NCBI GenBank assembly: GCA_965223545.1
Contig: OZ245006.1
Span: forward strand, 7,872,001-7,936,000
DNA: 64,000 bases
Source of the DNA: Planctomycetota bacterium
Lineage (GTDB): Bacteria > Planctomycetota > UBA1135 > UBA2386
Direction: 5' to 3'
Below, piece after piece: positions 51,671 to 57,515 of this stretch (positions within the stretch are counted from its first letter, which is position 1; every line of letters begins with the position of its first letter). The position numbers were made by a program, and so were the translations under genes. Below the pieces are notes generated by a model. That model ran no database searches. It was not told the origin of the DNA and saw only the letters and a program-made list of their open reading frames with translations.

Positions 51671-53043
51671 AAGCCAGCAAGCTGTGAGTGGGTTGGGGTG
51701 GCGTCCTCAGAGTCGGGTGCAGAGCCGGAGGCTGGTAGAGTGCCCAGTCCCATGGCGCAGGTGAGGAGCGACGTCCGGTGACACTCTTTCGGGCTTTTCT
51801 CTCTGTCTCGTTGGATGGATACCTCGCCGACGAGGACGGCAGTGTCGGCTGGCTCGATGCCTACATGACGTCCGAAGTCGACTTCGCTGGGTTCGACGCA
51901 GCGATTGGGGCGGTCGTGATGGGACGCACGACGTTCGAGTGGTCACGCAAACACGGACTCGAAAGGCTTGGGGGGTGTGGATCCGCTATTGAGCAACTCG
52001 ATCATGCGGCCACCTTCACGGCGGTACGTCGGGTTTCGTGGAGCTTGTGCATCGCTTGATCCCAACGGTCGCTGAGCGGCAGAGCACGCAGGCGGAGGAC
52101 GTGTTCGCCGGTCGTCGACTTCCAGCGCGATCCGGCGCGTTTCATACGCACGGCCACGAGTGTCTTGCAGGTGGCCTCGACAGCTCCGCTGCCAATTGGC
52201 AGACCAAGGCGCAGCGATCTGGCGAACCGCATGCGCTCGGCGTGGTTTTCGAAATAGGTGATGGCCTCATGGACGGGCCGCTTCGAGTCCCGCCAAGTAT
52301 CCTCGAGGCCGGAACCGCGCAGTTCGGCGCGGATCTCTTCGGCTGCGCTGTTCGCGCAGCGCAATCGAACGCGCCAACGGTGCAACTCCGACTTGGCGCC
52401 GTCTGCACCGAAGATCACCTCGGCGGCCGGCGCCAGCTTCTCGACCACGTGCCAGAAGTCGATGCCTTGCTCGACGTTGCCGAACACCGCGGCGGGGAAG
52501 TGAGTGTGGAGCAGGTTGCACATCTCGTGGGCACCGTCGGACAGCAGCTTCACTCGCAGGTCCGGGCTCTTCTGCAACAGCCTGTACGCCTCGCCGGCGA
52601 TCTGAGCGAACCACAGGTCGACGTCGCTTTCCGGCATGCACCCGTACCGGAGCGTGTGCAGGCTCGCCCCTTCGGCGTCGTGCAAAGTGATCGTTGCGCA
52701 GTAGGCCATCCGGAAGTTCCGGTCTACGGGCCGCTTTGGCGCGTCCTTGCGCGGTCGGCCCGCCCGACGCTTCGCGGCCTCTTCCATCGGCACGGACACG
52801 CGGTCGACTGCCACGCTCATGGCGACGGCTTCCGCTGGCACGTCGAACTCCTGCGTGAGCATGTCCTCGATGTCCGCGTGTTCGCGAAGCCAGTGCTCGC
52901 CGACATGGTGCGCGACGCGCTCGAAGCTGGCCCGCGAATAGGGAAACCGACCTGTCTGGCGGGCAGCATCCGCCGCATCGCGCGACGGGCCGCGCGTAAG
53001 CGTCCGGTGAAGGCATCTCGAAAGCCGCTGGCGGATCGGCAGG

Positions 53044-53388
53044 ATGCGGCGGATGACGAAGAGAATCCCCGTGTGGGCTCGGGCGGAGATGCGCGAGCTG
53101 CTTCAAGAGCTGGACAACTCAGGCGTGACGGTCGCCGAGTTCGCGCGCCGGCGTGGAGTCAACGCAAACCGCATCTACTGGGCAAGGCGGCAAGCCCGAG
53201 CTGCGGCGGCGCCCACGTCCGCGCCGGCGGTGTCGGACTTCGGGGAGCTGGTGGTCGCTGCGGCCCCATCGCCGCGACGAGCAGCGGCCATTGAGTTGCG
53301 GGTGCCGTCGGGCGCGGTTGTCGATGTGCAGCGCGACTTCGACGAGGCGACGCTCCGACGGCTGCTCGGAGTCTTGCTGCCATGCTGA
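53044..53388 (+). CDS. tnpA: IS66 accessory protein TnpA
   Basis: SGVTVAEFARRRGV..RIYW HTH; DEATLRRLL; overlaps tnpB start. Confidence 0.85.
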   Translation: MRRMTKRIPVWARAEMRELLQELDNSGVTVAEFARRRGVNANRIYWARRQARAAAAPTSAPAVSDFGELVVAAAPSPRRAAAIELRVPSGAVVDVQRDFDEATLRRLLGVLLPC

Positions 53389-53762
53389 GCTTTCCGCCCT
53401 CGCCGCAAGTCAAGATCTTCGTTTGCCGGAAGCCGGTGGACATGAGGAAGAGCTTCAGTGGTCTGTCCGGTGCGGTCATCGACGTGGTCGACCACGACCC
53501 GCAATCTGGTCACCTCTTCCTCTTCTTCAACAAGCGCCGGACCATGATGAAGGCACTGGTGTGGGAGCCGTCCGGTTACTGGGTGCTGGCGAAGCGACTG
53601 ACGAGCGGCCGCTTTCAGGTCTTCGATCGCTCGGCTGAGAACAACAGCCGATTCGAGATTGCGAGTAGCGATCTCGCGCTCTTGTTGGACGGCATCGACC
53701 TCCGTGGCGCGCGACGCAGAGAAGTTCGCGATCAGGTGCTGCAACGACTGGCCGTGACTTGA
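53382..53762 (+). CDS. tnpB: IS66 accessory protein TnpB (Orf2, not the IS200/605 nuclease)
   Basis: PVDMRKSFSGL, DPQSGHLFLFFNKRR, KRL..GRF, LLLDGIDL. Confidence 0.93.
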   Translation: MLSFPPSPQVKIFVCRKPVDMRKSFSGLSGAVIDVVDHDPQSGHLFLFFNKRRTMMKALVWEPSGYWVLAKRLTSGRFQVFDRSAENNSRFEIASSDLALLLDGIDLRGARRREVRDQVLQRLAVT

Positions 53763-53792
53763 TCCGTCTCCGGTTTGTGTTAATCAGAGGGA

Positions 53793-55346
53793 GTGACGCC
53801 GCTCACGGACCTCGACGAAGCCAACTCGACGATCGTCAAGCTGCGCGCCGAGATCGAGCGCCTTCGCGGGCAGCTCGAACTGATGAAGCAGCGCACGTTC
53901 GGACGGCGCCGCGAGCACATCAATCCGAACCAACTGCTGTTGTTCGAGGCCGGCGTCGCGCAGCTCGAAGAGCTGCAGAAGCAGGCGCAGGAAGCGGAGC
54001 AGTCGAGCGAACTCGCGAAGCCTGACCCGAAGAAGAAGCGGAAGCGCGGTCACGGTCGCGGTCAGTTCGCCGAGCACCTGGATCGGCATGTCGTCGAGGT
54101 CGACGTGCCGGAAGCGGAGCGCTGCTGCCCCGAGTGCGGCGAGGCCATGCACTGCATCGGGACTGACGTCACCGAGCGTGGCCACATCATCCCAGCGCGG
54201 TTGGTCGTGAAGCGCTACGTGCGCAACAAGTACGCGTGCCCGCACGGGCACAGGATGAAGATGGCGTCGATGCCTGCCGGCGTCGTCGAGAAGGCGAAGT
54301 ACGAGCCCTCCGTCTACGCGCATCTTGTCACAGCGAAGTACGGCGACCACCTGCCGCTGAACCGCCTGCAGGGGATCTTCCGCCGCTTCGGGGCGCACGT
54401 CCCGAAGCAGACCATGTGGGACATGCTGGCGCGCTTCGACGAGATCGCGGCGCGTCCGATCCTGGCCGAGATGCGGCGCCAGCTGCTTCAAGAAGATGTT
54501 CTTCAAGCCGACGAGACCCCGATCAGGGTGCGACTGGAAGGCCAGAAGGGCACCCGGCGCGGTGTGCTCTGGGCCTGGCGGAACGCTCGCGGCAGCCCCA
54601 ACGAGATGGTCGTGGCCGACTTCAGGGACAATCGATCCGCGAAGGGGCCCAACGCTTTTCTCGGCGCGTGGTCCGGGACATTGTTGACCGATGGCTACGA
54701 CGGTGTGAACCCGAAAGCGCAGCAGAACGCGATCACGCGGGCTGGCTGCTGGGCGCACGCCCGTCGGAAGTTTCGGGATGCGCTCACTGCTGGTGCATCA
54801 CGGGCTGGTTTGGCGCTGCGACCGATCCAGAGGCTTTTCTGGATCGAGCGCGCCGTACTGTCCCGAGCGAAGGATCGGAACCTGACCCGTGAAGCCCTCA
54901 TCGAACTGCGTGAGACCGTTCGTAGCCGCAGATCCAAAGCGGTGCTCCACAGCCTCTACGAGATCGTGTTCGGCCTCCAGGAGGATCCGGCGACCGCGGG
55001 CAACGAACTGCTTCGCAAGGCGGTGAGCTACGCCATCCGGCAGCGGGACCCGTTGCTCGCGCACCTCGACGACGGCCGGCTGCCGATCCACAACAACGAC
55101 ACCGAACGTGACCTGCGCCACGTCGTGACGGGCCGGAAGAACTGGATGACGCTCGCCAGCGAGAAGGGTGGCAACGTGGCAGCTCGCCTCTACTCGATCG
55201 TGCTCAGCTGCAAGCTGGCGAAGGTCAACGTCGAGCGCTACCTCGAGGACGTCTTGGTCGCTGTCGCCACCACGCCGTCGTCGCGCATCGCCGAACTCAC
55301 GCCCTGGGGCTGGGCGAAGGCACGCGCTGCCGGCCAGTCCTGCTGA
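53793..55346 (+). CDS. tnpC: IS66 DDE transposase TnpC
   Basis: FGRRRE, CPECG, KYGDHLPLNR, ADETP, TDGY, CWAHARRKF, NNDTERDLR, GRKNW. Confidence 0.95.
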   Translation: MTPLTDLDEANSTIVKLRAEIERLRGQLELMKQRTFGRRREHINPNQLLLFEAGVAQLEELQKQAQEAEQSSELAKPDPKKKRKRGHGRGQFAEHLDRHVVEVDVPEAERCCPECGEAMHCIGTDVTERGHIIPARLVVKRYVRNKYACPHGHRMKMASMPAGVVEKAKYEPSVYAHLVTAKYGDHLPLNRLQGIFRRFGAHVPKQTMWDMLARFDEIAARPILAEMRRQLLQEDVLQADETPIRVRLEGQKGTRRGVLWAWRNARGSPNEMVVADFRDNRSAKGPNAFLGAWSGTLLTDGYDGVNPKAQQNAITRAGCWAHARRKFRDALTAGASRAGLALRPIQRLFWIERAVLSRAKDRNLTREALIELRETVRSRRSKAVLHSLYEIVFGLQEDPATAGNELLRKAVSYAIRQRDPLLAHLDDGRLPIHNNDTERDLRHVVTGRKNWMTLASEKGGNVAARLYSIVLSCKLAKVNVERYLEDVLVAVATTPSSRIAELTPWGWAKARAAGQSC

Positions 55347-56510
55347 GACGCGTCGGCGGTCGCTCTTCAACCGCTGGCCGCCATGGCGTCACCGGACGCT
55401 TACGGCCGCGCTGAATGTCGTTCGCCATGCACTGGGCGGTGAGAGGAAGCCAACCGCGGCCGTAGGCACCGGTTCGCAGCTTGATCGGGTCGAGGATCGG
55501 TCCGTTGCGCACGCCGACTTGGCGATAGACGGTGCGCTCGACTTTGACCTCGCCCGCCATCGTGAAGTACGTGCCCGGCGTGCGCCGGAAACTGGCGTAG
55601 AGAGCGCCTCGGACCCGGATCCGTGGCGCGTCGACGTCGAGGGCGCGAAGCACCTCCGCGTGCGCTGCCCGCTCGACCGCGGCGGTCTGCTTGGCGATCG
55701 CCCTCTCCGTGTCCGCGTAGTCCACCGCGTGACCGCCGCGGCTCGACTCCGCCGCCGCCACCGTTGCGTCGACCAGGCTCTGCATCGACTCGGCGAGCCC
55801 CTTGTGCTCAACTGGCACCTTCACGAGGACGTACCCTCGTGAAGCGCCCCTCCCAGGACGCTGGTGTTGCATCCTGTATCCGATAGGGAGGGGCGCATGC
55901 TTGTACAAGTGTCTTCTACACAAATACTTGCGGCGAGCCAGCCTGCGACCACCAGATCTCGGGTGCGATCACGCTGCTCCGCTCAATGCCGGAGCCACAC
56001 CCGGCTTGGGGCGAGGCGCAGTGTGGTGCTGACGCATCGTTCGCTCGGCGAAGTGCCAGCGAATGTCGAGGCGTTCGCCGGCGACGTGCGTGAGCTTGCG
56101 GCGTCTTTGCGAGCCGAGCTGGGAACCGAAGGCAAGGACGTCTGGCTGATGGGAGGAGGTCTGTCACTCCAGACGTTTCTGGATGCCGGCCTGGTGGACA
56201 CGCTCGAGCTGTACGTGGTGCCCGAATTGCTGGGTGCTGGCACTCCACTCTTTCCAACCGGTGGCGAACGCAGCTCTTGGAACTTGACGTCGATGCGCAG
56301 CCTGTCGAACGGGATGGTCGAAGTCATCTACTCGCGCCGAGAGTGAGCGCCGACGGGCACGCCGCTCTTGCTGGAAGCCTGCATGGAGCAGCGACGCCGA
56401 GCGACTCCGCCAACTGCTCGACCGTCGGGCTGGTTGACGTTTGACGCGGTCACGATCGATGGGGGACGATCGGGGTTGGAGCGAGCGGCTGCGGAGGAAC
56501 CCCACGCACT

Positions 56511-56831
56511 GTGTCCGATTCCAACGAGCAACCCAGGGGCCAGCAGACCGAGGGGCCGCATCCGATGTCTCGATGGCACTTGTTGTTCAGCTCGCCCATG
56601 TTGTGGCTCGGCCTGTTCATGATGATCGCGGGCGCGCTCCCCCTGCTGGTGGTCGGGGGCGTGGCGTGGCTGACGGGGGAGACCTCCGAGACGGCGGTCG
56701 GTCCGGGGTTCTTCCTCTGGTGCATGGGGTGCCCGGGCCTCATCGTCGCCGCCGCCGGGGTGATGCATGGCGTCTGCGAGTCGATCACGCGGCGGCCAGA
56801 ACCCGACGCCTCTGGTGAGGTCGGGCGATGA
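56511..56831 (+). CDS. small membrane protein
   Basis: Two TM segments; GGAGG upstream; ATGA coupling to next ORF. Confidence 0.55.
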   Translation: MSDSNEQPRGQQTEGPHPMSRWHLLFSSPMLWLGLFMMIAGALPLLVVGGVAWLTGETSETAVGPGFFLWCMGCPGLIVAAAGVMHGVCESITRRPEPDASGEVGR

Positions 56832-57022
56832 AGCCCGCGGATGCGTCGCTCTTCCTTGGAGGAATGCTGCTGGGAGCCGCACTCGGCGCGCTCGGCGCCT
56901 ACGGCCTTTGGGGCGGCTACGCGCTCTTCATGCCCGGGGTGTGGGTGACCGTGGCCGCGTGCGCCGGGCTGACGCCGTTCGTCTTGGCTTGGTTCGTGCA
57001 GGAGTACGAGAAACTGGAGTGA
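56828..57022 (+). CDS. small membrane protein
   Basis: 64 aa, two TM segments, translationally coupled. Confidence 0.55.
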   Translation: MKPADASLFLGGMLLGAALGALGAYGLWGGYALFMPGVWVTVAACAGLTPFVLAWFVQEYEKLE

Positions 57023-57074
57023 TCCCAACCAGTGGTGCTCGAGTGGCGCGAGGCCACCGGTCGATGACGCAAGC

Positions 57075-57515
57075 ATGAAGCCTCTCGCCTACGCGGTGCT
57101 GGCCGGGGTCCTGCTCGCGGGCTGCGCCAGACAATCCACACCACGCGCGGATGACGATGTCGTCCCGGCGCTGACCCCGGAGACCTTCGACCAAGCCATC
57201 GCCCAGGGCGCCGTGCTGGTCGACTTCTGGGCCGATTGGTGACTGTTCTGCCAGCAGATGGTGCCGTTGGTATCATCGACTGCGCGGGACCTCGAGGGCG
57301 AGGTCCGCGTTTGCAAGGTCGACGCGGACACTTGGAAAGAGCTCGACGAGCGCTTCGATCTGCCGGGCTTCCCGACCTTCATCCTCTTTCGCGACGGTCG
57401 GGAAGTCGAACGGCACCCCGGCGCCTTCGACGACATCGGCGAGTTCCAGATGTGGATTCGCGAGGCGCTGGAAGGCGACGACGAGGAAGCCGAGGACGAG
57501 GACTCCGGCTGGTAG
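57075..57515 (+). CDS. lipoprotein thioredoxin, probable selenoprotein (UxxC)
   Basis: MKPLAYAVLAGVLLAGC...VLVDFWADW-TGA(57240-57242)-LFCQQMVP...CKVDAD...GFPTFILFRDG; 146 aa with readthrough. Confidence 0.85.
57254..57283 (+). promoter_or_regulatory. putative bacterial SECIS hairpin
   Basis: GATGGTGCC-GTT-GGTATCATC (9 pairs incl. 2 G-U), extendable by GCAG/CTGC; G-initiated loop 23 nt after the UGA. Confidence 0.7.

Follow-up and report, generated by a model that had tools for sequence, protein, structure and literature searches.

It is of interest whether an in-frame TGA in a thioredoxin-like gene of this genome is a stop codon or a selenocysteine codon, and what the encoded protein might do if it is the latter. 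The window, that is, the whole stretch of 64,000 nucleotides analysed here, corresponds to C1:7872001-7936000 of a genome of 8.1 Mb (70% GC, two contigs, 91% complete). Two paralogues have best matches among named loci (42-57% identity) that tentatively point to Planctomycetota.

Reading frame and N-terminus

Gene calling with table 11 splits the locus into a 55-aa ORF (57075-57242) and an 85-aa ORF (57258-57515, from ATG 57258), and the public protein collection contains both pieces. Translation with TGA as U yields a single protein of 146 aa from ATG 57075, the earliest start codon 3' of the upstream in-frame stop, which corrects the annotation in the databases as 55-aa and 85-aa pieces. The elements that the initial annotation had described in a hidden ORF are all seen in this frame, namely the lipobox (L14-A15-G16-C17), VLVDFWADW-U56-LF-C59, GFPT (with P100) and the acidic tail; codon 56 also aligns with the first Cys of WCxxC in the homologues, as had been proposed. 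The frame is intact on either side of the UGA, with no second lesion, and a codon model trained on the genome gave it positive scores on both sides and strongly negative scores for the other two plus-strand frames. The features are summarized in Table 1. A third Cys, C80 (codon 57312-57314, in VCKVD), is invariant in all three orthologues.

Table 1. Features of the thioredoxin locus, and further UGA loci of the genome (positions in the window, or on contig C1 where so prefixed)
Feature	Position	Strand	Basis
Full gene, 146 aa, one in-frame UGA read as selenocysteine	57075..57515	+	frame and Pfam match across the UGA
Predicted lipoprotein signal peptide, lipobox LAG-C17 at 57114-57125	57075..57125	+	sequence pattern, coding-like codons
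Flexible linker, residues 18-28	57126..57158	+	model
Classical thioredoxin domain (D51, W55, U56, C59, P64, K81, P100 at the cis-Pro position)	57159..57476	+	Pfam, model, alignment
UGA codon 56, predicted selenocysteine, nucleophilic Cys position of WCxxC	57240..57242	+	homologue alignment
Bacterial SECIS, lower stem and 9-bp upper stem 57257-57277, GUU loop 57266-57268	57245..57290	+	fold
Acidic C-terminal tail	57471..57512	+	sequence; both orthologues acidic too
Upstream 106-aa hydrophobic ORF, probably a gene	56511..56831	+	coding score, no Pfam family
Upstream 64-aa hydrophobic ORF, 4-nt overlap with preceding stop	56828..57022	+	coding score, no Pfam family
Family-less UGA loci, first four (L201, L202, L205, L207)	C1:3622532-, 492917+, 6151628+, 6247186-	as signed
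Family-less UGA loci, last three (L211, L212, L214)	C1:2993927+, 2580553-, 1762082-/1761854-	as signed

Lipoprotein precursors have a basic n-region, a hydrophobic stretch and a lipobox Cys in this order, and the N-terminus MK-PLAYAVLAGVL-LAG-C17 has, by pattern, all three. Because the lipobox is present and both Lgt and LspA are encoded in the genome, export of the product as a lipoprotein is plausible. No in-frame ATG occurs between the signal peptide and M62.

The initial annotation had suggested that the product acts with the two small membrane proteins encoded upstream (Table 1). The coding score favours the called frame of both ORFs, their products have no Pfam family, and atlas searches gave weak unnamed clusters only. 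Among 90 genomes of the family, weak homologues of the 106-aa product were found in three and a single weak match to the 64-aa product in one; none of these four has a thioredoxin gene nearby. Adjacency alone ties these ORFs to the thioredoxin gene, and no support was found for a partnership or another functional link. Further upstream, a RibD_C-family gene appears to be split (51778-56346; N-part 51778-52059, C-part to 56346) around a minus-strand frame (52002-52862 plus 55297-55923) with no Pfam match, which we call transposase-like as a guess; an IS66 element (53044-55346, with TnpB and transposase matches) in turn breaks up this frame, giving a nested insertion.

Selenocysteine machinery and the reality of the UGA

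The Sec machinery, for which a search had been proposed, was found in full in the genome: a profile search detected selA (384 bits), selB (318 bits) and selD (346 bits), all above the curated cut-offs, and a tRNA with a UCA anticodon was called as tRNA-SeC by ARAGORN and matched RF01852 with 74 bits. The selD gene carries its own in-frame TGA, in GG-U-AAK. The tRNA-Sec gene (C1:7952888-7952982, plus strand) is situated about 17 kb past the end of the window and about 24 kb from the thioredoxin gene, selA and selD are direct neighbours (C1:1.264-1.266 Mb), and selB lies at C1:7.665 Mb. TGA ends 2818 of the 3650 long coding ORFs on C1 and is the main stop codon; therefore, a general reassignment of UGA was ruled out. 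We also compared contigs, not raw reads, from four of ten sequencing runs. The TGA was identical, with 0 differences in the aligned sequence, in the contigs of X4 (a further sample from what is likely the source study, covering the whole stretch) and X6 (another study, covering 57021-57303), and X5 and X7 do not cover codon 56. At the level of contigs, X4 and X6 thus contradict a sequence error at the UGA.

SECIS hairpin and its controls

The 48 nt 3' of the UGA fold into a hairpin of -25.9 kcal/mol (z -4.05), a stability that 0 of 200 shuffled sequences equalled. Its upper stem (57257-57265 with 57269-57277, 9 bp, loop GUU, 23 nt from the UGA) is the 9-bp hairpin with a G-initiated loop noticed initially, now recovered as part of a longer structure. 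In PMC13188914, the bSECIS consensus model has a loop of 3-9 nt, an upper stem of 4-16 bp, a G in the first two loop positions, a spacing of 16-37 nt and an MFE <= -7.5 kcal/mol, and the hairpin lies within all four of the constraints compared (GUU, 3 nt; 9 bp; 23 nt; -17.4 to -27 kcal/mol). No Rfam match was found near the gene.

We set the control threshold at >=9 pairs, >=7 of them Watson-Crick, with a G in the first two loop positions and a spacing of 16-37. An equal or better stem was found after 72 of the 4739 Cys codons and after 90 of the 2823 TGA codons that close long coding ORFs of the genome, the latter set containing some true Sec codons; when a short G[G/U] loop was also required, these numbers fell to 16 and 10. 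Synonymous recoding of the 24 post-UGA codons yielded an equal or better stem in 78 of 20,000 trials. By MFE alone (over 57 nt), 11% of 600 sampled Cys sites and 18% of 600 sampled TGA ends fold equally well, free energy by itself being a poor discriminator in DNA of 70% GC. The stem had been described as built from unusual codons, and this holds for GTA (2.1% of Val codons) and TCA (2.3% of Ser codons) but not for TTG, which makes up 14% of Leu codons. As read from the fold, GTA and TCA each end in a rare A that pairs with a U, and these U's are set by V63 and M62; the TTG codon contributes the GUU loop. The hairpin thus outdoes both the genomic Cys and TGA controls and the synonymous recodings, in agreement with the earlier suggestion of selection on RNA structure, and we regard a SECIS under selection at 57257-57277 as well supported. 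A sigma-70-like promoter match (57248-57276, plus strand, 9/12, with TG; shuffles 0.0 +/- 0.2) overlies the hairpin and is probably a by-product of the AT-richer stem.

The motif was also sought in a GTDB genome scan, which gave at least 120 DFWAxW-TGA-xx-C loci. Among those listed, 92 have an open frame of >=60 codons after the TGA, some of which (e.g. from Bacteroidota and Patescibacteria) may be errors, and a hairpin of >=6 bp with a short G[G/U] loop occurs in 52 of the 92, as against 76 of the 4739 Cys codons. Among the matches listed, such genes occur in many genomes of Planctomycetota, Armatimonadota, Treponema and Desulfobacterota (L068-L187), and HERSLV, an element that recurs among them, specifies a 7-bp stem with a GGUC loop at +31.

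The machinery, the agreement of the hairpin with the bSECIS model, the alignment of the UGA with Cys and the contig from a second study all agree with the initial proposal, and the in-frame TGA almost certainly encodes selenocysteine at the thioredoxin active site.

Family placement and orthologues

With C replacing U, PF00085 matches residues 31-118 across the UGA with 82.4 bits against a cut-off of 23.5. In the AlphaFold model (7-row alignment, C for U; pLDDT 81.9), the protein has the shape of a plain thioredoxin, with an rmsd of 1.2 A over 107 columns to E. coli thioredoxin (2trx), so that the thioredoxin fold proposed at first is borne out by profile and prediction. Residues 1-30 of the model have a pLDDT of 48-71, and secondary structure is absent before residue 32. 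D51, W55, K81 and P100 align with canonical thioredoxin residues, and we take their roles to be those in thioredoxin, with D51 as the buried Asp and P100 at the cis-Pro position.

Scores stayed below the NCBIfam cut-offs of the housekeeping thioredoxin equivalogs (TIGR01068, 75.4 against 96.8; TrxA NF006898, 52.3 against 138; TrxC NF008229, 72.8 against 125), and neither the Pfam profiles AhpC-TSA and Redoxin nor the NCBIfam profiles ResA, TlpA and DsbE matched the gene product. Membership in the TlpA/ResA/CcmG-like group is thus unsupported, unlike for the genome's own TlpA-like UGA genes. In a tree of 49 rows, the gene and two orthologue fragments form a clade of their own on a long branch (1.53; support 100/99), apart from Treponema and the other U-containing thioredoxin rows, and the position of this clade beside TrxC-like sequences is not firmly backed (89/81). 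Judged from its sequence, the predicted product is a member of the UxxC thioredoxin family, and neither a housekeeping thioredoxin equivalog nor of the TlpA/ResA group. A clade of three putative lipoprotein thioredoxins is hereby defined, two of which are known as post-UGA fragments only.

These two orthologues, the protein fragments P0003 (71% identity) and P0075 (66% identity), both start at M62, six codons after the UGA, as an in-frame stop shortly before this Met would lead one to expect; short contigs (639 bp for P0003, 1055 bp for P0075) or the choice of the gene caller may also lie behind the shared start. All three sequences have MVPLVSS, the residues encoded across the upper stem-loop, and elsewhere 38 of 78 positions are invariant; protein constraint could partly account for the invariance of MVPLVSS, since it is also the active-site helix. 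Because orthologue DNA was not obtained, the evidence from these fragments for conservation of the TGA, hairpin and lipobox is indirect.

A profile search of 1739 candidates (47-256 aa) recovered the three fragments only and no full-length Cys orthologue, and among 90 family, 338 class and 400 sampled phylum genomes, the genome itself alone matched. Two metagenome scans gave no orthologue: 0 of 206 candidates were confirmed in the first, and 23 of 224 in the second, all at 34-46% identity. The search of shorter proteins recovered the genome's own 55-aa piece alone, and the best 150 matches of a 50%-cluster search were mostly multi-domain proteins. Nineteen other loci and four regions from 60 relatives were set aside as ordinary CxxC thioredoxins in which the flagged TGA is the terminal stop, and no match was obtained for L042.

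Other predicted selenoprotein genes of the genome

A mechanical scan for a TGA between coding-like segments followed by a hairpin gave 163 and 87 rows, among which 32 listed positions were picked by hand. Four of the 32 (C1:3887580, 1948751, 7413922 and 4715201) were left out because they are probably true stops or lie off-frame. In 20 of the 27 loci scanned (L189-L215), many with signal-like N-termini, a Pfam match extends across the UGA. The families are TlpA-like (three), BCP (two), Prx, AhpC-like, MsrA, a VPGUxxT-family protein over the NCBIfam cut-off, deiodinase-like (two), a DsbD C-terminal domain, Thioredoxin_7 (two), a tandem thioredoxin, FDH, DUF3179, AhpD-like, HMA and OxyR. Their hairpins mostly have GGUC, GUC or GUU loops at 19-31 nt and are of the same class as that of the thioredoxin gene. 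Together with selD and the thioredoxin gene, at least 22 UGA genes are supported by a family, a lower bound because the set was picked by hand. The genome is selenoprotein-rich, below the records of 57 and 63 quoted in PMC13188914.

The other seven loci (Table 1) carry SECIS-like hairpins; neither Pfam nor NCBIfam gives them a family that spans the UGA, and they are possible uncatalogued selenoprotein families. L207 and L211 are paralogues, and L214 would contain two Sec residues.

A candidate OxyR with selenocysteine

One of the 20 family-supported loci (C1:3908806; gene C1:3908191-3909099, plus strand; L215/L217) encodes a LysR protein with an in-frame TGA in EEGH-U-LRQQALAVC, where relatives read GHCLR; a GUC-loop hairpin follows at +21. 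Its best matches are OxyR, both by profile (NF008361, 271 bits against a cut-off of 329) and among structures. A genome of another family in the same order (G126; C64, L249) has a TGA at the same residue, and there, too, a hairpin with a GUC loop lies at +21; among the matches listed (136 class genomes with a match), the internal TGA occurs only in these two. The selA gene is present in G126 and also in two Cys-type relatives that were checked. A Sec-peroxiredoxin gene lies about 540 bp upstream of the OxyR-like gene on the opposite strand, in divergent orientation. The pattern EGH-U-LR, searched in 400 phylum genomes, matched in 25 other genomes, and none of the 20 loci fetched was LysR-like. 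OxyR is absent from the table of 119 families, and the words 'OxyR' and 'LysR' from the text, of a 2026 review (PMC13188914). We found no report of a seleno-OxyR in the literature searched, a scope outside which most subscription journals lie. An OxyR-like regulator with selenocysteine at the peroxide-sensing residue is highly probable, and it would represent a selenium-based transcriptional peroxide sensor.

Proposed function and alternatives

As a whole, we consider that the locus is best explained as a gene for a lipid-anchored, exported UxxC disulfide reductase that has Sec as its nucleophile and is fed by DsbD, with a probability of about 0.6. SelB with tRNA-Sec would bind the hairpin with the GUU loop, 23 nt past the UGA, and insert Sec at codon 56, a step that the machinery and the hairpin found here make very highly probable; without selenium, translation would end at codon 56 and leave a 55-aa stub lacking the active site. 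The precursor would be exported, lipidated at Cys17 by Lgt and cleaved by LspA, so that the thioredoxin domain would sit on a short tether outside the cytoplasm, which the motif and the two enzymes render quite probable. In thioredoxin chemistry, the residue at the first position is the nucleophile and the second Cys resolves. By analogy, U56 would attack the disulfide of a substrate, or else a repair enzyme in its oxidised form, C59 would resolve the mixed bond, and the Se-S bond would be re-reduced by a DsbD-type membrane protein; given export, these steps are likely. DsbD is the most likely electron source outside the cytoplasm, and the genome has a DsbD-like gene (C1:4306602) with a UGA in its C-terminal thioredoxin domain, as a partial match below the NCBIfam cut-off. 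Likely clients would be repair enzymes of the envelope, for example those Sec-MsrA and Sec-peroxiredoxin proteins of this genome that have hydrophobic N-termini.

The U-L-F-C site had been called atypical. L-F indeed occurs in 0 of the 91 other DFWAxW-U-xx-C loci listed, G-P leading with 29, but other hydrophobic dipeptides (VI, LI and IT, one each) do occur among them, and the point is a small one. Because L-F has no counterpart among these 91 loci, homology does not set the direction of catalysis, and for the same reason the main competitor is the same exported selenoprotein working not as a DsbD-fed reductase but on envelope proteins, as their dithiol oxidase or disulfide isomerase. The dipeptide between the active-site residues tunes the redox potential, and L-F stands here in place of the G-P found in 29 of the 91 listed loci; a natural U-L-F-C site offers material for the question of how dipeptide and selenium set the redox potential outside the cytoplasm. 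The F/Y-P-T loop, which resembles the GYPT of PDI-family domains in the alignments, the acidic tail with the conserved C80 and the long-branched clade would also suit an oxidase or isomerase. However, the model has a single classical thioredoxin domain with neither the helical insert of DsbA nor the dimer domain of DsbC, GFPT is also found in ordinary bacterial thioredoxin matches, and PDI proteins ranked at the top because the scores of several domains were summed, a single PDI domain reaching 57 bits against 68 for a bacterial thioredoxin. We therefore regard an oxidase or isomerase as improbable.

The other two alternatives concern the ends of the argument, the N-terminus and the UGA itself. 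Sec insertion may be real and the N-terminus not processed as that of a lipoprotein, in which case the product would be a second thioredoxin, either cytoplasmic or anchored in the inner membrane. The lipobox was recognised by pattern, there is a single Lys in the n-region and the orthologue fragments lack N-termini; nevertheless, Met-Lys, a 13-residue hydrophobic stretch and LAG-C follow in the expected order, no ATG is in frame from the signal to M62, and the Planctomycetota locus L068 repeats the layout of lipobox, thioredoxin and WAPW-U-GPC, so that this reading is quite improbable. Least of all do we expect the TGA to be a true stop, whether through fixation of a nonsense mutation as the gene decays, through a mistake in the assembly or through reassignment of the codon to another residue. 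The gene is missing from all relatives searched and is therefore dispensable or recently acquired, and the sigma-70-like match could be an alternative cause of the AT-rich codons; transcription from it, however, would begin after ATG 57258 and face a convergent gene. Against a true stop, the contig of the other study has the same TGA, TGA is the main stop of the genome and so not generally reassigned, the frame on both sides is free of a second lesion, and the truncation falls at one and the same point in two diverged orthologues.

Beyond the DsbD-fed reductase itself, the thioredoxin gene could be one node of an envelope redox network made up mostly of selenoproteins under an OxyR with Sec at the sensing residue, in which Sec-DsbD would pass electrons to the exported Sec-thioredoxin and Sec-TlpA proteins and these to Sec-MsrA and Sec-peroxiredoxins. 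We put this forward tentatively, as a rather doubtful reading, and are much less sure of the connected network than of the Sec-OxyR alone; if it is true, selenium supply would gate both the sensing and the repair of oxidative damage. The gain from the thioredoxin gene itself is modest, and its selenoprotein-rich setting matters more.

Comparison with known systems

In PMC13188914, Table 1 lists UxxC thioredoxin (PF00085; representative WP_010956703.1) as experimentally verified. The gene described here shares with this family PF00085, a redox motif that begins with U, the resolving Cys and a SECIS in the coding region, and it differs in its N-terminal lipobox and linker, the L-F dipeptide and the acidic tail. 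The same table gives the exported-type thioredoxin-fold UxxC families (isomerase-like/TlpA-like cd02966, Prx-like and Redoxin) as predicted. The putative product resembles these in UxxC, thioredoxin fold and predicted export, whereas it has the size of a plain thioredoxin and no AhpC-TSA, Redoxin or ResA/TlpA/DsbE match. Many exported thioredoxin-fold UxxC loci occur in the listed GTDB set, and this genome has three TlpA-like ones.

A similar layout is seen in L068, from a Planctomycetota MAG (JBCAWX010000003.1), which shares the lipobox, the linker, a single classical thioredoxin domain and the UGA at the nucleophile; it differs in its U-G-P-C site and is not an orthologue (phmmer E 6e-14, separate branch). 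Exported selenoprotein families with lipoprotein signals, truncated in databases at the UGA, have been described as SaoB, SaoC and SaoX of the SAO system (bioRxiv 10.1101/2022.07.06.499078). These differ in having ABC substrate-binding and CC/CU-COOH folds and a conserved neighbourhood of nine genes, and as far as family scans show, they have no sequence relation to the gene described here. Planctomycete selenoproteins have been reported before (PMC4807772). UxxC thioredoxin is an already catalogued selenoprotein family, to which the gene described here adds a member.
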